A stretch of 64,000 nt of DNA from Candidatus Caldarchaeum sp. (GCA_038890155.1 JAWAFZ010000001.1:74709-138708); one strand, 5' to 3'. Numbered from the stretch's first letter, positions 18,473 through 59,847 are shown. Notes: generated from the sequence alone by a model not told the origin. Translations and numbers: made by a program.

Positions 18473-20662
18473 CTACTCCTCCTCAACGAACTGAGCGATC
18501 GTAGGAACCTCCAGCGGCATCCCTTTCCTCTTCCTAATCTCCTGAATTACCTTGTCTCTTAGCGACGATGGAACAGGCTTCCACTGGCTGAATTCGGTGG
18601 CCCAGAAGGCTTTGCCCATAGTGGCGCTGCGCATAGCCTCGCTGAGGTCAAAGGTCTCGGACGCGGGTATTTCGCCCACCACCACGGTCACGTATTCTGC
18701 CTGTTTGACGTCGATTACTCTTCCACGCTTACTTGTTATGGTTGAGGTGACTGCGCCCATGAACTCGGGAGCAATCTTTGCCTCAATCTTGAGAACCGGC
18801 TCCAGAAGAACAGGCGAGGCAGAAAGAACGCTTGCGTATAGGCTTCTCCACGTAGCAGGAGCTATCTGAGCGTAGCCTCTGTGCACAGGGTCCTCGTGGA
18901 GCTCCACCTGTGTGAGGACAGCCTTAACGCCCCTCATGTTTTCAGCAGCCAGCGGGCCTTCCTGTATCACACGCTGGAACCCTCCAACTATCATCATCCT
19001 AGATTCCTGAAGGTACTGAGCGCCTTTGGTTGCGTCGACGAGCATGTTTCCACGGCCGTCTATCACCCATACGTTCCTAGCCTCCTCGGCATCCCATCCA
19101 TGTTCTCTCAAAAGCTTCGCCACTTGCTTCCTATCCATCTCGTCGAAGAGCTCACCTTTCCTGATGAGCTCGACCACCTCAGGCTCCAAAGGCTCGACCC
19201 TCGTGTATATCCTGTTGTGGCGGTTGGGAGACTTGCCTTCAAACTCTCTTCCCTTAGACTGGACCGCTTCCCTGTATAGTATGATGGGCTTGCCCGATAC
19301 AACCTCCAGCCCTGCCTTCTGAATCCACGTAAGAGCTATCTCAAGGTGGAGCGTGCCCATACCGCTTATCAGATACTCGCCCGTCTCCGGCCTTACTACG
19401 GTGACGAGAGTCGGGTCTTCGATGGTCAGCTTGTTAAGGAACTCGACGAGCTTGGGCAGGTCTCTGCTGTATTTCGGCTCGACCGAGATCGTCACGACTG
19501 GTTCGGAGACGTACTTTAGCGACTCGAACGGTATTGTTTCGACGGAGCCTATCGTATCGCCGGCACGGACGTCGTTCAGCCCCAGCACCGCGGGTATGTT
19601 CCCTGCGGGAATGCTGCCGACTATCTCCCTTGACGGACCCATGTAAACACCGACCTGCTGAACTCTTCCCGAAATGTTCCGCCCGACTATGATGACGGAG
19701 TCGCCTTCGTTGACTGTTCCGCTGAAGAGCCTGCCCGTGGCAACGACGCCCGCCTGCGGGTCAACCCGAACGTCCGTTACAGCCATGACGGTGGGGCCGT
19801 TTTCGTCGCAGTTCAGCATAGCCTGCCCGACCTCGCTCTCGAGGTCTCCCTTCCATATCTTGGATATCCTGTATTTCTGGGCAACATGCGGCGGCGGATG
19901 CTTCGATATAACCATCTCCAGCAGAGCTTCGTGAAGGGGTGTCTTCTGCCTAAGCCACTCCACATCTCCTCTGGAGAAGGCGTCTATGACGTCGGCGAAT
20001 TTGATCCCCTTCTCCTGAGCCTGCTTAACGGTGAAGCCCCACCTGTCCTTCGAGCTGCCGATCGCAACGGTGTTTTCGGCGAAGTTAATCTTCCATTTCT
20101 CACGCTGCTCAGGCTCGCCGTACATCTCGATTAAGGCGTTGACGTCCCTCACGATCCTGGTTAGGGTCTCCTGAATCCGTTCTGGAGGTAGACGGAGCTC
20201 CTTGACGAGCCGGTCTATCTTGTTGATGTACAGGACGGGCTTAACCCTCTCGCTCAAAGCTTGACGGATGACAGTCTCCGTCTGAGTCATAACCCCCTCG
20301 ACAGCGTCGACCACAACTATGGCGCCGTCTATGGCACGCAGAGCCCTCGTAACCCTTCCTGAAAAGTCGACGTGTCCAGGGGTGTCGATTAGGTTGACGA
20401 TGTACTGCTTGCCGTTCGTCTCATAGTACAGCGAGACGTTGGCGGCTTTGATGGTCATCTGCCTCTGCTGCTCCTCCTCCAAGTAGTCTAGGGCGAGGGC
20501 CTTGCCGGCAAGCGAGGGCGAAAGAAGCCCGGCTGCGGCTAGCAGGGAGTCGGAGGTGGTTGTTTTGCCGTGGTCGACATGTGCTATGATGCCGATGTTC
20601 CTTATGTTCTCCTTGCTCCTTAGGATGTCGACTACTTCCGATATCTTCTTAACTCTTGGCAT
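18473..20662 (-). CDS. fusA: Translation elongation factor 2 (aEF-2)
   Basis: G domain AHVDHGKTT, DTPGHVDF, and the diphthamide-site motif HEDPVHRG; 729 aa. Confidence 0.95.
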   Translation of the reverse strand: MPRVKKISEVVDILRSKENIRNIGIIAHVDHGKTTTSDSLLAAAGLLSPSLAGKALALDYLEEEQQRQMTIKAANVSLYYETNGKQYIVNLIDTPGHVDFSGRVTRALRAIDGAIVVVDAVEGVMTQTETVIRQALSERVKPVLYINKIDRLVKELRLPPERIQETLTRIVRDVNALIEMYGEPEQREKWKINFAENTVAIGSSKDRWGFTVKQAQEKGIKFADVIDAFSRGDVEWLRQKTPLHEALLEMVISKHPPPHVAQKYRISKIWKGDLESEVGQAMLNCDENGPTVMAVTDVRVDPQAGVVATGRLFSGTVNEGDSVIIVGRNISGRVQQVGVYMGPSREIVGSIPAGNIPAVLGLNDVRAGDTIGSVETIPFESLKYVSEPVVTISVEPKYSRDLPKLVEFLNKLTIEDPTLVTVVRPETGEYLISGMGTLHLEIALTWIQKAGLEVVSGKPIILYREAVQSKGREFEGKSPNRHNRIYTRVEPLEPEVVELIRKGELFDEMDRKQVAKLLREHGWDAEEARNVWVIDGRGNMLVDATKGAQYLQESRMMIVGGFQRVIQEGPLAAENMRGVKAVLTQVELHEDPVHRGYAQIAPATWRSLYASVLSASPVLLEPVLKIEAKIAPEFMGAVTSTITSKRGRVIDVKQAEYVTVVVGEIPASETFDLSEAMRSATMGKAFWATEFSQWKPVPSSLRDKVIQEIRKRKGMPLEVPTIAQFVEEE

Positions 20663-20717: not shown

Positions 20718-21173
20718 TTATTTCTTCTTCTTAGCAGGCTTCTCAAGCTCCTTCTTCAGGCCTTCGACAAGCTCCTTGACCTTCGCCTTCGTAGTCGACT
20801 CCATGAGCCTGCTACCGACGCTGGCCACGAGACCTCCTACAATCATGTCGGCTGACCAAGAAACCTCGGTGCCTCCCTCAACGGGGTTGAGCTGTAGCTG
20901 GAGGCTGAGGTCAGCCGTGCTCTGCATCCCCGAGCCCTTTCCCGAGATCCTCAGGCTCGTCGGCGGGCTCAGCTCTTCGTACTTGAAAGCCATGTTCAGG
21001 CTGCCCTTAATCATTCCAAGACCGATTTTGAACACGGTCTTGAAGCTCGTGGCATCAACTTTCTCATACTTCTGAAGGTCGGGGATCAGCTTGACGAAGT
21101 TATCCGGCTCCGTGATGAACTTCCAAACAGTATCCCTGTCTGCTGCGACAACGAACTTGTCAGCCATCTTCAT
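20718..21173 (-). CDS. coxG: CoxG-like SRPBCC family protein
   Basis: About 151-aa SRPBCC/CoxG fold protein with a Lys-rich tail, immediately downstream of coxS. Confidence 0.7.
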   Translation of the reverse strand: MKMADKFVVAADRDTVWKFITEPDNFVKLIPDLQKYEKVDATSFKTVFKIGLGMIKGSLNMAFKYEELSPPTSLRISGKGSGMQSTADLSLQLQLNPVEGGTEVSWSADMIVGGLVASVGSRLMESTTKAKVKELVEGLKKELEKPAKKKK

Positions 21174-21177
21174 CTAG

Positions 21178-21723
21178 CTAGACCTCTACTACAGGCTTAC
21201 CCGAGCTCCTTATCTCTTCAGCAGCAGCCAGAATGGCCTTGACTATGTTGACGTATCCAGTGCAGCGGCACAGGTTTCCCGAGATGCCGTGCCTAACCTC
21301 CTCCTCAGTCGGGTTAGGGTTAATCATCAGATACCCTGCGGAAGCCATTATCATGCCAGGTGTACAGTAGCCGCACTGGAGGCCATGATGCTCCCAGAAT
21401 GCTTTCTGCAACGGATGGAGCTCATCACCCTTCGCCATTCCCTCTATAGTCAGGATCTTCTTCCCGTTAGCCTGTACGGCGAAGTAAGTGCACGACTTGA
21501 CCGCCTTCCATTTTCCGTCAAACTGCATCAAAACAGTGCAGGCTCCGCAGTTGGTGGTGTCGCATCCTATGTGAGTTCCCGTAAGCCCTGCATTCTCCCT
21601 TATGAAGTGCACGAGTAGAAGCCTCGGCTCGACCTCGTAGCTGTAGTCGACGCCGTTGATGTTAACCGTGACCAATTTCTTCGAAGGCTCAGCTTGCTTC
21701 AAACCTTTCTTGGCGGCCATCAT
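21178..21723 (-). CDS. coxS: Mo-hydroxylase small subunit, [2Fe-2S]-binding (CoxS/CutS-like)
   Basis: Plant-type ferredoxin motif [11 protein letters not shown] and a second cluster motif [10 protein letters not shown] ... CRCTGY. Confidence 0.9.
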
Positions 21724-21730
21724 TCATCAC

Positions 21731-22603
21731 CTAAACCGCAACACCAGCCCTCTCAAAGGCTTTATTTAAAGCCCTCCTCGTGAAAACCTTAGCCATCTCA
21801 CGCTTGTACTCAGCTGACCCTCTAAGGTCAGAGGAGGGGTCTGACATGTCGGCGGCCGCCTGCGCAGCCTTCTCCACCAAATCCCTCGTGGGTTTCTGGC
21901 CGACCAAAATCTCCTCAGCTTCCGTCGCCCTGAAAGGCGCCGGAGCAACCGCCGTCAAACCTATGCCAACCTTATCAACGACGTTATTGGCGTCGAGAGC
22001 GGCAGAAGCCGCCACGCCGACAGTCGCGTAGTCGCCGGCCTTCCTCTCAAACTTAAGGTATGCCTGGCCTACCTTCGCACCCATCGGAACAGGCATCACA
22101 GCCTCCACAAGTATCTCGGTTGGTTTGAGTGCTGTCTCGAACGGGCCTTTGAAGAACTTTACAGCTTTGATCCTTCTCTTAGCGGTACCTTGAGCAACGA
22201 GCTCGGCGTCCAAGGCTAGGACTGCCGCTGGCCAGTCGGCGGCCGGGTCTGCGTGGGCGAGGGATCCCAGGAAGGTTCCTAGGTTTCTAACCTGCATGTC
22301 GGCTATCTGGGGAGCGGCCTCCGCTAATAGCGGGAGCTTCTTCTTGATTATCGGGGAGTGCTCGATGTCTGCGTGCCGTGCTAGAGCACCTATCCGGACA
22401 ACTTTCCCACCGTCCTTGATGTAGTTGAGCCCTTTGATGTTGTTAATGTCAACGATGTACTGGGGTGAGACGAGCCTGAGCTTCATCATCGGTATGAGGC
22501 TCATTCCTCCGCTGAGGACCTTAGCGTCCTTGTGCTTACGGAGGTACGAAACAGCTTGGGCGAGAGTCGTCGGAGCCAAGTACTCAAATTTCCTCGGTAT
22601 CAT
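21731..22603 (-). CDS. coxM: Mo-hydroxylase medium subunit, FAD-binding (CoxM/CutM-like)
   Basis: FAD-binding PCMH-type domain (AKVLSGGMSLIP), CO-dehydrogenase flavoprotein C-terminal domain; 290 aa. Confidence 0.85.
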   Translation of the reverse strand: MIPRKFEYLAPTTLAQAVSYLRKHKDAKVLSGGMSLIPMMKLRLVSPQYIVDINNIKGLNYIKDGGKVVRIGALARHADIEHSPIIKKKLPLLAEAAPQIADMQVRNLGTFLGSLAHADPAADWPAAVLALDAELVAQGTAKRRIKAVKFFKGPFETALKPTEILVEAVMPVPMGAKVGQAYLKFERKAGDYATVGVAASAALDANNVVDKVGIGLTAVAPAPFRATEAEEILVGQKPTRDLVEKAAQAAADMSDPSSDLRGSAEYKREMAKVFTRRALNKAFERAGVAV

Positions 22604-22706
22604 CGGTTTTGTTGAAGTTGCGGCTTACTTAAAAACGTTTCGAGGTTTTTGAACAGGCGAAAAATGCAAAACATAAATTAACAGATGAGAACGGAATTCA
22701 CCGGAG

Positions 22707-23573
22707 TTGTTAAAGGATCTAACGCCTGAAAGCCTGGTCCAAGCTATGGAGAGGGAGTTGTACGTTGCCGACAGACCCCTTGCTCTGTCCGTTTACTTGG
22801 CGCTCAAGCTCGAAAAACCTCTCCTCATCGAAGGGGAGCCTGGATGCGGGAAGACGGAGGTGGCGAAGGTCCTAGCCAAGCTGCTGGACACGGACCTCAT
22901 ACGCCTCCAGTGCTACGAGGGCATCACGGCTTCACAAGCTCTCTACGAATGGGATTATCCACGCCAGCTGATTAACATACGACTGCTCGAAGACAAGAAA
23001 ACACCCGAGGAGATATCGGCCGAGATATTCAGCGAGAAGTATCTTCTTCGGAGGCCTTTGCTTGCGACGCTTCTCCACGAGGGGCCCAACCCTCCTGTCC
23101 TACTCATCGACGAGATAGACAGGAGCGACGAAGAGTTCGAGGGGTTTCTGCTGGAGTTTCTGGCAGAGTTCCAAGTAACAATTCCTGAGCTCGGCACAAT
23201 ATCTTCAAAGAAGAAGCCGGTCGTCATAATTACTTCCAACAGGACGAGGGAGGTCGGCGACGGGCTGCGAAGGCGTTGCCTGTACCTCTACGTGACCTAT
23301 CCCTCTCCCGAGAAGGAGAGGAGGATCTTGTCGCTCAAAGTGCCCCAGCTCTCGCCTAAGATGGCGGACGAGGTCGTGGCCTTCGTCCAAAAGATACGCC
23401 AGATAAACGAGCTCAACAAGAAGCCCGGCATATCGGAGACGATAGACTGGGCTAATGCTTTGAACGTGCTCGGAGCTTCAGACCTCAGCCCTTCTATGAT
23501 AGAGTCGACTCTAAGCTGCTTGATAAAGAACGAGGACGACCTGAGGGTCATCAGAGATTCAGGGATCTTCTAG
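22707..23573 (+). CDS. coxD: MoxR-family AAA+ ATPase (CoxD-like)
   Basis: Walker A GEPGCGKTE, Walker B LLIDEIDR, MoxR sensor regions; 288 aa. TTG at 22707, or ATG at 22746. Confidence 0.85.
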   Translation: MLKDLTPESLVQAMERELYVADRPLALSVYLALKLEKPLLIEGEPGCGKTEVAKVLAKLLDTDLIRLQCYEGITASQALYEWDYPRQLINIRLLEDKKTPEEISAEIFSEKYLLRRPLLATLLHEGPNPPVLLIDEIDRSDEEFEGFLLEFLAEFQVTIPELGTISSKKKPVVIITSNRTREVGDGLRRRCLYLYVTYPSPEKERRILSLKVPQLSPKMADEVVAFVQKIRQINELNKKPGISETIDWANALNVLGASDLSPSMIESTLSCLIKNEDDLRVIRDSGIF

Positions 23574-23575
23574 AG

Positions 23576-24736
23576 ATGTTTGAAGATGATGTTCTATTCT
23601 TAGTGACTGACGTCGCAGAGCGTCTCCGAGGATACGGCGTGAAGTGCGGCAGTTCTGAGACGATAGACGCCTACAGGGCGTTAGGCTTGGTTAAGCTGGG
23701 TAGCGTTGAAGAACTCAAGAACGTGATGAAGCTATGCATGGTCAAAAGGCTTGAGGACTACGAGGTGTTTGACAGGGTTTTTGAGGAGATGATGTCGTTG
23801 AAGAAAAAGCCGGCCGAGCGTAGGCAGTCTGAGGCCGGGGGAGAGAGTGGGAGCGGGCAGAAGACTCTTGAAAGGAGCAGGGACGGCGGCAGGGACTCTC
23901 GCCAGGCTATGATGGCTTACTACAGCCCTGTTGAGATCCTTACGAGGAAGGAGCTGCCCATCCCGACAATCGAGTTCATCCGTGAAAGCAAGAGGGTGAT
24001 GAAGAGACTACGGCGCAGGCTGGCGCTGATGCCCGGCCGTAGGTACGAGAAGAGCAGCAAAGGCGTCGTGGATTTCGGCGCGACGATGAGGCAGAGCCTG
24101 AGAAACTACGGCGAGGTCATGAAGGTTTTGAGGATGAGGAGAAAGCTTACGAGATGCAAGCTAGTTGCGATATTTGACGTAAGCGGCTCGATGGACACCT
24201 ACACGGAGTTTCTGATGCAGTCTATGTATTCGCTGGCACGTCAGAGCGTGGCCGTGGAGGTCTTCGTCTTCAGCACGAAGCTTCTTCGAGTAAGCAGCCT
24301 CCTCAAGTACTTTGGGCCTAAGAAGGCTTCCGACCTCATCTCGAGAGATGTAAACATTTGGGGTAGCGGTACCAGAATCGGCAGCTGTCTGCTAAACTTC
24401 ATCGAGAAGTACCGCGGGATTGTGAGCAGGGGTACGGTTTTGATAATCGTCAGCGACGGCTGGGACACGGGCGAGCCCGAGCTGCTGGACAGGGCTATGA
24501 GGAGCTTGAAGGCCATGGTCGGGCGATTGATCTGGGTGAACCCTCATGCCGACAAACCTGGCTTCAAGCCTAGAACCATAGGCATGGAGACCGCCCTGCC
24601 TTACGTGGACATTCTAGCCGGTATGAACGCTTTGAAGAACGTCCGAGGATTCACAAAGTACTTCGGCCCATCCCTCCAGCCCATGACCCGGAGGACGCAA
24701 GCCGTCAGCAGACGGGGCCTACACGCTCACCCGTAG
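23576..24736 (+). CDS. coxE: VWA-domain protein (CoxE-like)
   Basis: C-terminal vWA domain with MIDAS-like region (IFDVSGSMD); cognate partner of the MoxR ATPase; 386 aa. Confidence 0.8.
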   Translation: MFEDDVLFLVTDVAERLRGYGVKCGSSETIDAYRALGLVKLGSVEELKNVMKLCMVKRLEDYEVFDRVFEEMMSLKKKPAERRQSEAGGESGSGQKTLERSRDGGRDSRQAMMAYYSPVEILTRKELPIPTIEFIRESKRVMKRLRRRLALMPGRRYEKSSKGVVDFGATMRQSLRNYGEVMKVLRMRRKLTRCKLVAIFDVSGSMDTYTEFLMQSMYSLARQSVAVEVFVFSTKLLRVSSLLKYFGPKKASDLISRDVNIWGSGTRIGSCLLNFIEKYRGIVSRGTVLIIVSDGWDTGEPELLDRAMRSLKAMVGRLIWVNPHADKPGFKPRTIGMETALPYVDILAGMNALKNVRGFTKYFGPSLQPMTRRTQAVSRRGLHAHP

Positions 24737-25562
24737 CCTCCCGCAGTATCTCCTCTGTCTCGACCTTCTTAACTTCCTGAAGACGTCTTGCAGTACCGCC
24801 AGTCTCGAGCATGAGGACTTCAGCCATTATGCTCAGGGCAATCTCCTCGGGCTTCTCCGCACCTATGTCGATGCCGCAGGGTGAAGAGATCTTGCTGAGG
24901 TGTTTGGAGTCGAGCCCCATCCTAAGAAGCGTTTCTATTACGATGCCGGCCCTCTTCTTGCTGGCTATGAGACCGACGTACCACGCCCCGCCGTCCAAGG
25001 CTTTCTTGATGTACTTGTGGTCTAGCTTGTGCATCGTCGACACCACGGCTGCCGTGCGTTCGTCAACCCTTACATCCGTCAAGTCCGGGTCTACGCTGTA
25101 CTGGTCTACCTTGTCGGCCCGCTTGAACATGTTCTCAGGGTCTGCGACCACGACTCTGTAGTCGAGCATCTTGCCTAGCTTCGCTAGGCTCTCGACTATC
25201 TCGCCGTGCCCCACGAGAAGCAGCTGCTTCTTAGGCAGGACCGGTTCGAGGTAAACCTCCATCGAGCCTCCGCATGGCACTCCCGTTCCACGGAGCTCGT
25301 CCTCCATCTCCAAATAGATCGTCCTGCCTTTGGCCTCCTTCAAGGTCTTTAGGGCTTCCTGCATCACGGTGGTCTCGACGCAGCCTCCTCCAACCCATCC
25401 GAACAAGCCTTTTCCGTCTTCTAGGATGATTGCCTTCGAGCCGACTTTCCCCGAGGTGTGTCCGAATGTTTTGACGACCGTGGCTATGCAGAACTTCTTG
25501 CCCTCGGCCAAAAGCTCGGAGACCTTAGTGTAGAACGTTAAGTTGTCCAACCCGGGATGCAA
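24705..25562 (-). CDS. xdhC: XdhC/CoxI-family molybdoenzyme maturation protein
   Basis: XdhC_CoxI N-terminal domain plus XdhC Rossmann domain (LLLVGHGEIV); 285 aa. Confidence 0.75.
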   Translation of the reverse strand: MHPGLDNLTFYTKVSELLAEGKKFCIATVVKTFGHTSGKVGSKAIILEDGKGLFGWVGGGCVETTVMQEALKTLKEAKGRTIYLEMEDELRGTGVPCGGSMEVYLEPVLPKKQLLLVGHGEIVESLAKLGKMLDYRVVVADPENMFKRADKVDQYSVDPDLTDVRVDERTAAVVSTMHKLDHKYIKKALDGGAWYVGLIASKKRAGIVIETLLRMGLDSKHLSKISSPCGIDIGAEKPEEIALSIMAEVLMLETGGTARRLQEVKKVETEEILREATGERVGPVC

Positions 25563-38651: not shown

Positions 38652-38738
38652 CGCCGGGGGTGGGATTTGAACCCACGCGGCCCGTGAAAGGCCACAGGCT
38701 CTCCAGGCCTGCCCTATACCAGGCTTAGGGACCCCGGC
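38652..38738 (-). tRNA. tRNA-Ser (anticodon GGA), type II with long variable arm
   Basis: Hand-folded cloverleaf: acceptor GCCGGGG/CCCCGGC; D-stem CCTA/TAGG; anticodon stem CAGGC/GCCTG with loop CUGGAGA; 18-nt variable arm; T-arm GTGGG-TTCAAAT-CCCAC; discriminator G. No encoded CCA. Confidence 0.85.
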
Positions 38739-38765: not shown

Positions 38766-39550
38766 TTATGAGGTTTTCCGCCTCAGCCCGCCCCTCCAAA
38801 CCGGGGCGTAGGTTGAGCGTGGCATGACGACTCTTACGGTGTCGACCGCAGGGCCCTCCACGGCTTCGAGCATCTCTGCGCCCGTCATCAGCGCTGTTCC
38901 GAAAGCCACAAGCTCGCTCTTCAGCGTCATGACCGCCACAAAGTCTCCCTTCCTGATCTCTGGGTCCAGCTTGCTCACGCCAACCGCCATCAAGTCAGCT
39001 CCGTGGCAAACAGCGTCTACAGCCGTGTCGAGAATGTAGACCTTCGGAAGCAGCTGGACACAGTCCTCCACGGGTCTCACCATCTTCAGAAGGGCTTCGG
39101 ATTCTCCCGACTGCTTGTACGAGGTCCAGGCCTCGTACAGGTCGAGAACAGTGTACGATTTGTTCTCCGTGAAAGGACCCGCCCTAACCCTCCTCAGCTC
39201 CTGCATGTGGGCTCCTACGCCAAGGTACTCCCCTATGTCGTGGCAGAGCTTCCTGATGTAAGTTCCGCCTGAGCAGCCCACCTTGAACAAAGCCAGCCTC
39301 CCGTCCCTTTCCAGCAGCTCGTTGTAGTAGACTGTCCTCACCCTCGGCCTCCTAGCCACAGCGGCCCTCACTGGAGGAACTTGGTAGATGTCGCCGGTGA
39401 AGAGCTCGAAAGCCTTCAGCAGCTCGTCGTCGGAGACGTCGCCGTGAAGCTCGAGCAAACCCACATACTCCTTACCGCTGTACATCAGCGCAGGAGCCGC
39501 CTTCGTCCCCTCGCCAAGCATCAGCGGAAGAACACCCGAGACAGCGGGAT
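38766..39550 (-). CDS. cbf5: tRNA/rRNA pseudouridine synthase Cbf5 (H/ACA RNP), exon 2 (TruB catalytic C-terminal part + PUA domain)
   Basis: Frame continues ...DPAVSGVLPLMLGEGTK...KEYVGLLELHGDV...; PUA domain at the C-terminus. Joins to exon 1 after removal of the 14-nt intron. Confidence 0.8.
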
Positions 39551-39564
39551 CTCCCCGAAAGACT
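39551..39564 (-). other. 14-nt bulge-helix-bulge (BHB) pre-mRNA intron in cbf5
   Basis: mRNA sense: ...GCGGGA-CCCU-AG|AGUCUUUCGGGGAG|A-UCCCGC... Outer helix GCGGGA/UCCCGC (6 bp, extendable to 9). Central 4-bp helix CCCU/GGGG. Two 3-nt AGA bulges hold both splice sites. Removal restores the GHGGTLDPAVSGVLP frame. Confidence 0.7.
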
Positions 39565-39823
39565 CTAGGGTCCCGCCGTGCCCGGCCTGAGCAAGCCCGA
39601 GCATTTTCTTGACCATGTAGGCTACTTCGTGGCTCGTCGGCCCACGGGGCTTGTCGAGGTTTACAACCCCAAGCCCGAGAAGCTCTTCAACGGACCGCTG
39701 CTCCGGGTTCTTTCCACGGCTGTAGTCGGTCTCTGCCTCACGCTTAACCTCGAGCCTTTGAGGCCTCGTCCAAGGAGGGTCAAGCCTCATACCGCTCAAC
39801 CATGTACCGCTCCAACCCAGCAT
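39565..39823 (-). CDS. cbf5: Cbf5, exon 1 (N-terminal TruB catalytic region)
   Basis: VVNLDKPRGPTSHEV...KAGHGGTL then the frame breaks; the catalytic Asp codon GA|T is split across the intron. The start may be the internal Met at 39790. Confidence 0.8.
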
Positions 39824-40058
39824 CCCTTATTGCTTTAAGGACTTCCTCGTCCGAAGCATCCCTCGGTATCTCCAGCTTCTTCGGCGTGGGAGCTAGATGC
39901 TTTACGTTGACTTTCCTCCTCCTCAGCCCAGTGAGAGGCTTGGGTCCTGTTAGAACGACGTAGCCGTCGTCAAGCACGGAGACGACAACACCTTTCGAAC
40001 CAGCATCCCTGCCCGAAAGCTTTACGCAAACCCTTCCAAGAAGATCCTCCGCAGTCAT
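39780..40058 (-). CDS. rpl14e: Ribosomal protein L14e
   Basis: KOW-like motif GRVCVKLSGRDAGSKGVVVSV; ATG at 40058 chosen over the GTG/TTG track start; 92 aa. Confidence 0.8.
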   Translation of the reverse strand: MTAEDLLGRVCVKLSGRDAGSKGVVVSVLDDGYVVLTGPKPLTGLRRRKVNVKHLAPTPKKLEIPRDASDEEVLKAIRDAGLERYMVERYEA

Positions 40059-40121
40059 GCCGCTGAAAAATAGCTCTCCGACAGCTTTTATACATAAATT
40101 AAGCAATTAGAGGCTCTGTCT

Positions 40122-59412: not shown

Positions 59413-59847
59413 TTGACGTCGGTATACAGGCTGATTAACAAAGCTTGGAGAGAGAGGCCTGCGACGCTGGTGTCGTCCATCCGGTCTAGGATGGTCTCGT
59501 GGAGAAAGGAGAAGAGCGTCGTGCGTGCTGACAAGCCTCTCAGAATCGACAGGGCTAGGAGTTTAGGCTACCGCGCCAAGCCGGGCTACGTTGTGCTTAG
59601 GGTGAGGGTCAGGCGTGGAGGGTTCAGCAAGCCGAGGCCTAGGGCTGGAAGAAGGCCGAAAGCCATAGGCGTCGTCAGACACAAGGTAAACCTTTCGCTT
59701 GAGGAGGAAGCCATCCGCAGAGGTTTGAAGAAGTATCCCAACCTCAGGGCGTTGGGCGCCTATCCTCTCGCCGCAGACTCGCTCTACAAATGGTTTGAAG
59801 TCGTTGCTGTAGACCCCAGCCATCCAGCAGTCAAACTCAATAAATAA
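59413..59847 (+). CDS. rpl15e: Ribosomal protein L15e
   Basis: RIDRARSLGYRAKPGYVVLRVRVRRGG...FPNLRAL...EVVAVDPSHPA matches the L15e signature. Confidence 0.85.
   Translation: MTSVYRLINKAWRERPATLVSSIRSRMVSWRKEKSVVRADKPLRIDRARSLGYRAKPGYVVLRVRVRRGGFSKPRPRAGRRPKAIGVVRHKVNLSLEEEAIRRGLKKYPNLRALGAYPLAADSLYKWFEVVAVDPSHPAVKLNK

Follow-up and report, generated by a model that had tools for sequence, protein, structure and literature searches.

Protein-coding introns are extremely rare in Archaea. The intron in the cbf5 pre-mRNA of Aeropyrum pernix and Sulfolobus spp. was reportedly described by Watanabe in 2002 and by Yoshinari in 2006. Here we analyze a cbf5 gene, encoding a TruB/Cbf5-type pseudouridine synthase, that is interrupted by 14 nucleotides (nt) in a 64,000-nt genomic stretch of Candidatus Caldarchaeum sp. 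(GCA_038890155.1, JAWAFZ010000001.1:74709-138708), which is referred to below as the window and in which positions are counted from the first letter. From comparison with related loci we conclude that this gene is very probably functional and that the 14 nt are a putative endonuclease-spliced intron of the bulge-helix-bulge (BHB) type located in the catalytic Asp codon.

The published range of the cbf5 intron is limited to the Desulfurococcales and Sulfolobales, with lengths of 16-44 bp, and Thermoproteales, Cenarchaeum, Nitrosopumilus and Korarchaeum lack the intron (Yokobori 2009, PMC2738675). The crenarchaeal intron splits the catalytic residue's codon, its BHB motif is usually unconventional, and it is cut by a heterotetrameric endonuclease between the second and third bulge nucleotides; splicing was confirmed by cDNA in several species, and the authors traced the origin of the intron to the ancestor shared by Desulfurococcales and Sulfolobales (PMC2738675). 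A 2020 paper refers to it as the only additional BHB intron, 'in crenarchaeota' (PMC7714728). A first-pass annotation of the window had listed Aeropyrum, Sulfolobus and Thermoproteales as known carriers, which agrees with the literature for the Desulfurococcales and Sulfolobales, whereas the Thermoproteales are reported to lack the intron (PMC2738675).

The Caldarchaeum intron resembles its crenarchaeal counterpart in many respects. Both interrupt the same gene at the same point of the Asp codon and in the same phase (G^AY; the caret marks the splice site here and below), both are short, contain no open reading frame (ORF), and have a variable interior and a relaxed BHB, and both are predicted to be cut after the second bulge nucleotide in a host lineage that has an (alpha-beta)2 splicing endonuclease EndA. 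In contrast to the published range of Desulfurococcales and Sulfolobales, the host belongs to the Nitrososphaerota; Thaumarchaeota, Korarchaeum and Thermoproteales were scored as intron-free in PMC2738675, whereas Caldarchaeum bears the intron. The 14-nt length falls just under the published 16-44 bp, with an inner helix reduced to 0-2 bp, and splicing was demonstrated experimentally in Crenarchaeota, whereas in Caldarchaeum it is deduced from sequence and comparison. The kind of intron and the mechanism are already known; what is new is its occurrence in another phylum and the minimum of 14 nt, compared with the published 16. For Aigarchaeota/Caldarchaeales, Nitrososphaerota and Bathyarchaeota, no mention of an intron in cbf5 was found in a literature survey where subscription journals were mostly uncovered, so that an earlier mention is possible.

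BHB introns of archaeal pre-tRNA and pre-rRNA, which occur in the canonical hBHBh' form and in relaxed forms (hBH, HBh' and BHL), share with the cbf5 intron two 3-nt bulges, the 4-bp helix between them and an outer helix formed by the two exons; the tRNA-intron size range of 11-175 nt takes in the 14-nt cbf5 intron, and the same enzymes are expected to act on it. They differ in that the cbf5 intron resides in a protein-coding mRNA, where no tRNA body aids recognition. Another mRNA substrate of an archaeal splicing endonuclease is the BHB intron of HVO_1309 in Haloferax volcanii (Schwarz 2020, PMC7714728), although it lies in a 5' untranslated region rather than in coding sequence, is processed by an alpha2 EndA, and belongs to an unrelated gene and lineage.

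The interrupted cbf5 gene and its restored reading frame

The cbf5 gene occupies positions 38766-39823 on the minus strand and is broken into two ORFs between GTL and DP of the GTLDP motif, in line with the first-pass annotation. The upstream ORF (39823..39521, minus strand, 100 amino acids (aa)) ends with ...KAGHGGTL-ESFGEIPLSRVFFR followed by a stop, whereas the downstream ORF (39521..38766, minus strand, 251 aa), when extended upstream in the same frame, reads DPAVSGVLPLMLGEG. The proposed deletion of positions 39551-39564 was reproduced in our analysis and leaves a single ORF reading GHGGTLDPAVSGVLP. Joining CUAG to AUCCC remakes GAU, the catalytic Asp codon (junction CUA G^AU CCC), and the intron is thus positioned between the first and second bases of this codon (G^AU). 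The resulting gene structure is as follows.

39565..39790, minus strand: cbf5 exon 1, with DKCLD and the start of TruB_N, to ...GHGGTL and the G of the Asp codon
39551..39564, minus strand: predicted 14-nt intron, AGUCUUUCGGGGAG, removal of which restores the ORF and which is found as the same 14 nt in 7 assemblies
38766..39550, minus strand: cbf5 exon 2, with AU of the Asp codon, PAVSGVLP..., the rest of TruB_N, TruB_C_2, PUA and the stop
39521..39523, minus strand: UGA stop in the exon-1 frame of the unspliced mRNA, from reading of the ORF

The conceptually spliced product contains the DKCLD, TruB_N, TruB_C_2 and PUA domains, each above its Pfam cut-off. The first-pass annotation had claimed a match to Pyrococcus Cbf5 and called for an alignment of the spliced product; this alignment with P. 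furiosus Cbf5 (2HVY_A) covers residues 16-328 with E=7e-102, and AGHGGTLDPxVSGVLP is in line with 2HVY_A across the splice junction. The product length given there, 347 aa, corresponds to an in-frame ATG at 39823, an alternative start that is not conserved. The Met at 39790 is the start kept in relatives and chosen by gene callers, so the product has 336 aa.

Because AGA is present at both intron borders, four adjacent registers of the 14-nt deletion produce an identical mRNA, and the cut sites between 39565 and 39564 and between 39551 and 39550 are set only by the BHB rule, i.e. a cut after the second bulge nucleotide. Under this rule the intron is made up of nucleotide 3 of the 5' bulge, GUCUUUC (a 7-nt mini-hairpin or loop), the GGGG strand of the central helix, and nucleotides 1 and 2 of the 3' bulge. 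In the unspliced exon-1 frame, GTL is followed by 14 unrelated residues and the UGA stop, without the catalytic Asp.

The two ORFs could also be the halves of a split gene, a reading implied by the public annotation, where an N-terminal piece of 89/100 aa and a C-terminal piece of 251 aa are separate products that come together as an active enzyme. Gene finders call both ORFs, and NCBI lists the 251-aa one under the name Cbf5. However, the catalytic Asp would be contained in neither piece: its codon is interrupted, and the exon-2 frame has its first start downstream of that codon. In addition, exon 2 has no conserved start codon in the relatives, where the called products vary from 250 to 268 aa, and the out-of-frame tail of the first piece is not conserved. 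This arrangement is therefore considered very unlikely.

RNA fold around the junction

The first-pass annotation described the junction as a canonical, near-perfect hBHBh' motif. The outer helix, the central helix and the AGA bulges are indeed present, but the motif is a relaxed one, in which the intronic helix h' amounts to a single G-C pair. Its elements are listed below.

39541..39579, minus strand: relaxed BHB motif, from folding and comparison of 20 distinct junctions
39579-39571 paired with 39549-39541, minus strand: outer helix of 9 bp with one G.U, core GCGGGA/UCCCGC
39570-39567 (CCCU) paired with 39556-39553 (GGGG), minus strand: central helix of 4 bp
39566-39564, minus strand: 5' bulge AG^A, with the 5' splice site after the second nucleotide
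39552-39550, minus strand: 3' bulge AG^A, with the 3' splice site after the second nucleotide
39563-39557, minus strand: inner loop or 1-bp h', one G-C pair and then U.U

The 51-nt junction folds with -29.5 kcal/mol (z=-3.47), and none of 200 shuffled sequences was equally stable. For the window sequence, the minimum free energy (MFE) structure shuts part of the 5' bulge, and the strict two-bulge form lies ~1 kcal/mol higher. By the canonical definition of hBHBh', the intronic closing helix h' has at least 2 Watson-Crick pairs (PMC7714728). The window agrees with the canonical form in having two 3-nt bulges 4 bp apart (in the constrained fold) and an exonic helix h of at least 2 Watson-Crick pairs, whereas its h' falls short of this number. 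The 14-nt relatives have an h' of 0-2 bp, and an h' of at least 2 pairs is found in the longer relatives L132, L138, L171, L065 and L088. Since h' in the window is one G-C pair and the MFE structure partly closes the 5' bulge, we classify the window motif as relaxed (hBH/BHL-like) rather than canonical hBHBh'. Among the 20 distinct junction sequences, the MFE structure always includes the outer helix, the central helix and the 3' bulge, and the strict BHB either is the MFE structure itself, as in L065, L089, L127 and L171, or lies within 0-3.5 kcal/mol of it.

Conservation, selection and proposed splicing

To place the interruption in a comparative context, 171 cbf5 loci were gathered by protein similarity, independently of intron presence. 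An insert at exactly this position of the Asp codon was found in 25 of them, the other 146 being uninterrupted. The insert is 14 nt long in 18 loci, 20 nt in L089 and in L132/L138/L141, 23 nt in L086, 30 nt in L065, and 36 nt in L088. The identical 14 nt of the window are present in 7 independent assemblies, namely five NCBI assemblies of metagenome-assembled genomes (MAGs) and two Logan assemblies of Sequence Read Archive runs, in which 333-334 of 334 flanking bases are identical. A sequencing or assembly artefact, with the 14 nt absent from the real genome, is a general possibility for any metagenome-derived sequence; the identity of these assemblies excludes it for practical purposes, and homologous inserts in about 25 loci from different projects speak against it as well, leaving it a negligible probability.

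Across the interrupted loci there is almost no variation in the exonic arms, the GGGG strand or the bulges, whereas the insert interior varies freely, and the long inserts form unrelated inner stems (GCCCC/GGGGC, AGGCU/AGCCU, GGCU/AGCC, AAGGCCCU/GGGGCCUU). The conserved GGGG run and the stable local hairpin resemble recoding stimulators, and full-length Cbf5 could in principle be produced without splicing by a programmed ribosomal frameshift (e.g. slippage on GGGG) or by bypass. The conserved features, however, are exactly those of a BHB, and inserts of 14 to 36 nt share no conserved pair of take-off and landing codons. A -1 slip would moreover place ~5 variable residues (ESFGG) right before the catalytic Asp, inside an invariant motif. 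Finally, stops in the exon-1 frame precede GGGG in L089 (UAA) and L088 (UAG), and the 30-nt insert of L065 is in frame and contains three stops; neither read-through nor a slip on GGGG could thus restore full-length products from these genes. We judge ribosomal recoding to be highly improbable.

All 18 distinct genes of the Caldarchaeum clade, when spliced in silico, give complete ORFs of 331-337 codons, and the interruption is retained by every member of this clade, which spans about 60-97% protein identity. Purifying selection acts on both exons, with a median ratio of nonsynonymous to synonymous substitution rates (dN/dS) of 0.16 in exon 1 and 0.11 in exon 2. Selection on the RNA was assessed by codon analysis of 18 spliced genes in 104 columns whose amino acid is invariant yet encoded by a degenerate codon family. 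Only three of the 104 columns use a single codon in all 18 sequences (GGC, GGG and GAU), and all three are located in the BHB arms. The mean codon entropy of the eight BHB codons is 0.37 bits vs 1.39 bits for the other 96 columns, and a value as low as 0.37 bits arose in none of 100,000 random eight-column sets; these codons vary freely among 111 distinct intronless relatives, where their entropies are 0.9-2.5 bits. These frozen synonymous sites are the strongest internal evidence of selection on the helix itself. They are frozen because the exonic arms both pair and encode GGTL/DPAV, and they offer a clean example of RNA-structure selection laid over a catalytic protein motif. By pair counting over the 20 distinct junctions, 93.9% of cells are paired, compared with 41-54% when the partners are slid, and the clearest compensatory change converts the central helix CCCU/GGGG to CUCU/AGAG in L065.

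These data bear directly on the explanation of the locus as a pseudogene, in which a 14-nt insertion knocked out cbf5 and left the two ORFs as remnants in decay. Its attraction lies in the two ORFs being in different frames, in the premature stop 30 nt past the break and in the disrupted catalytic Asp codon. On the other hand, the interruption is kept throughout the clade with every copy splicing to a complete ORF, both halves are constrained, and synonymous sites are frozen precisely where the RNA helix needs them. The gene also has a conserved position at a ribosomal-protein cluster, and no second TruB-family gene was found among the 73 ORFs of the window. Decay of the gene is thus extremely unlikely.

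A direct comparison with the known intron was obtained from a Sulfolobales-type locus. A profile search with junction-spanning Cbf5 fragments of A. pernix and S. solfataricus retrieved intronless fragments only, whereas an exon-2-only profile search yielded one Sulfolobales-type contig, L171, whose exon-2 ORF shares 73% identity with the fragment of S. solfataricus that is shown in the alignment of PMC2738675. Its junction, reading GGGGGGACCCUAG, AGCCCCUUUAAUGGGGCGGGGAG and ACCCCAAG in order, contains a 23-nt intron (CCCUAG^A...GGGGAG^AC) in the phase CUA G^AC CCC. This locus is like the window in its identical phase, CCCU/GGGG central helix and AGA bulges, and is unlike it only in having a 5-bp inner stem. 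The identical site, phase and core motif indicate that the Caldarchaeum intron is the same kind of element. Altogether, the initial proposal of a functional intron rather than a pseudogene receives strong comparative support from the 25 interrupted loci, the dN/dS values, the frozen sites and the identity with L171. The exact restoration of the frame and the seven assemblies with the same 14 nt are likewise among its main grounds.

The following mechanism can be proposed. In the pre-mRNA, GGCGGGA of exon 1 would pair with UCCCGCU of exon 2, and the last exon-1 bases CCCU with the intronic GGGG, leaving two 3-nt AGA bulges on opposite strands, 4 bp apart. The heterotetrameric (alpha-beta)2 EndA would then cut behind the second nucleotide of each bulge, and an RtcB-type ligase would join CCCUAG to AUCCCGC, restoring GAU (Asp) and GHGGTLDP with the predicted mRNA junction ...GGGACCCUAG^AUCCCGCUGUC. 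The mature mRNA would be translated into the 336-aa Cbf5, with GTLDPAVSGVLPLMLGEGTK as the predicted junction-spanning peptide, whereas the unspliced mRNA would give only a truncated product without the Asp. EndA cleavage, ligation and any regulatory role of the intron are all putative at this stage. The genome paper on Ca. C. subterraneum, in which cbf5 goes unmentioned, reports that the splicing endonuclease is heterotetrameric and that 13 tRNAs bear introns, non-canonical positions included (PMC3082918). Aigarchaeota have conserved the (alpha-beta)2 EndA, an enzyme form that cleaves relaxed motifs (PMC5829648).

Several observations weigh against an endonuclease-spliced intron. Splicing in the Caldarchaeum lineage, the exact cut sites and the enzymes involved are all inferred here, and neither EndA nor RtcB was found among the 73 ORFs of the window. 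The 14-nt forms are a non-canonical substrate, with an h' of 0-2 bp and a partly closed 5' bulge, and their cleavage would therefore depend on a broad-specificity EndA. Classical covariation is weak, because the helices are also coding and nearly invariant: double changes occur in only two pairs, a result matched by 50 of 500 shuffles. Lastly, both strands were scanned for BHB-like geometry, defined by a central helix of 4 bp, 3+3 bulges, an outer helix of 6 bp or more and an interior of 3-50 nt; the scan detected 106 motifs in the window vs a mean of 90 in dinucleotide shuffles. This geometry occurs at chance frequency, so that the fold alone is no evidence for an intron, and the argument that the fold proves the intron was given up. 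The chance of a BHB motif falling exactly at the site and with the length that restore the frame is about 2e-5 to 7e-5.

With counts like these, a scan for mRNA introns by motif alone would bring up an overwhelming number of false positives.

Distribution, annotation and genomic neighborhood

The nearest genomic loci are from Candidatus Caldarchaeum MAGs, with 97, 93 and 81% protein identity, and the exact 251-aa exon-2 ORF occurs many times in NCBI as 'Cbf5 [Candidatus Caldarchaeum]'. This lineage belongs to the Nitrososphaerota, order Caldarchaeales, the former 'Aigarchaeota'. Since the host is a Caldarchaeum and lies outside Crenarchaeota, the taxonomic placement in Crenarchaeota that the first-pass annotation drew from the intron has to be abandoned.

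The Cbf5 tree was built by neighbor-joining with BLOSUM distances and midpoint rooting; being rough, it was used for the statement on the main clade and not for the deep branching order. In this tree, all 18 tips of the main Caldarchaeum clade are intron-bearing, with no intronless member. The three loci of the 20-nt group (L132/L138/L141) are placed at the base of an intronless sister clade with Geocrenenecus (Wolframiiraptoraceae) and Nitrososphaerales. L065, from a Bathyarchaeota MAG, is nested among ~60 intronless Bathyarchaeia, and its nearest relatives (L040 and L028, distance 0.13) are intronless. Two other intronless Bathyarchaeia, L032 and L020, read GGCGGGACUCUAG^AC at the GGTLDP codons, which equals the exon-1 arm of the intron-bearing L065 and could be the footprint of an intron loss or a pre-existing 'proto-splice' site.

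The Bathyarchaeota insert (L065:3245-3274; CAVVMH010000001.1, MAG Candidatus Bathyarchaeota MFD00709.bin.2.105) has the same Asp-codon phase and forms a canonical BHB with the central helix CUCU/AGAG and the inner helix GGCU/AGCC, and the gene splices to a complete Cbf5. The 20-nt group comprises the metagenome contigs Ga0209394_1000003, Ga0071330_1105099 and Ga0080004_1135715 (L132, L138 and L141, respectively). Their intron, GAGGCUUWAAGCCUGGGGAC, is located at about position 1700 of each locus and has a 5-bp inner helix and the bulges AGG/ACA; the outer helix of L138 and L141 contains one G.G mismatch.

The whole Caldarchaeum clade of Nitrososphaerota, the L132/L138/L141 lineage and the single Bathyarchaeota MAG are new places for the cbf5 intron. 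In all of them it interrupts the codon at the same nucleotide and has the same core motif, so that the time and the number of its origins are again in question. The observed distribution could have come about by frequent loss of an old intron, or else by its repeated gain or transfer at a site predisposed to it; the GGT...DPA coding sequence can be made self-complementary (GCGGGA/UCCCGC). It is possible, although we hold it as somewhat less than probable, that the intron did not arise locally in Desulfurococcales and Sulfolobales but is ancestral to a far greater share of the TACK archaea (Thermoproteota, Nitrososphaerota and Bathyarchaeia) and was often lost, or that it moved or re-arose repeatedly at one 'proto-splice' site. 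If so, no protein-coding intron in Archaea would in either case be more widely distributed than that of cbf5, and the 14-nt Caldarchaeum form would be near the minimal substrate of the splicing endonuclease.

The public annotation of the NCBI MAGs contains no intron and presents the gene as an 89-aa DKCLD or 'hypothetical' ORF and a 251-aa 'Cbf5' without the catalytic Asp. The ORF is split in this way in the window (38766-39790) and in L172-L178, with the 89-aa ORF starting at 39790 in 7 identical assemblies, and the same split is seen in ~20 clusters of 250-268-aa 'Cbf5' proteins from Caldarchaeum-like genomes. Such split annotation is likely to affect, and can distort, marker-gene completeness estimates and phylogenomic alignments for these lineages.

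The cbf5 gene is found at the end of the large ribosomal-protein/SecY cluster in the order SecY - EMC3-like - cmk - L14e - cbf5, which is the same in all relatives fetched; this is the expected, conserved position of a single functional cbf5. Its immediate neighbors are given below.

39780..40106, minus strand: L14e-like (KOW) gene upstream of cbf5, whose 3' end is overlapped by the cbf5 start by 11 nt
38652..38738, minus strand: tRNA-Ser(GGA), directly following cbf5 on its downstream side and the sole tRNA of the window

The 11-nt overlap with the L14e-like gene (39780-39790) suggests that cbf5 is transcribed together with the ribosomal-protein cluster and is possibly coupled to it in translation as well. 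No intron was detected in tRNA-Ser(GGA), and a scan of the window at the Rfam gathering thresholds retrieved the tRNA only, with no family match at the intron region.

Two further observations were made elsewhere in the window. The ORF for ribosomal protein L15e (59413-59847, plus strand) encodes 144 aa that match positions 1-144 of the 191-position Pfam profile. The gene for an Obg-like GTPase begins 26 nt after it and thus leaves no room for the C-terminal part; the short form may be natural in this lineage, or something may have been lost. A cluster of the CO-dehydrogenase type was found at 20718-25562, with no large molybdopterin subunit adjacent and elongation factor 2 as the neighbor at 18473-20662; it comprises CoxG, a [2Fe-2S] subunit, an FAD subunit, an AAA ATPase, a CoxE-like VWA protein, and XdhC.

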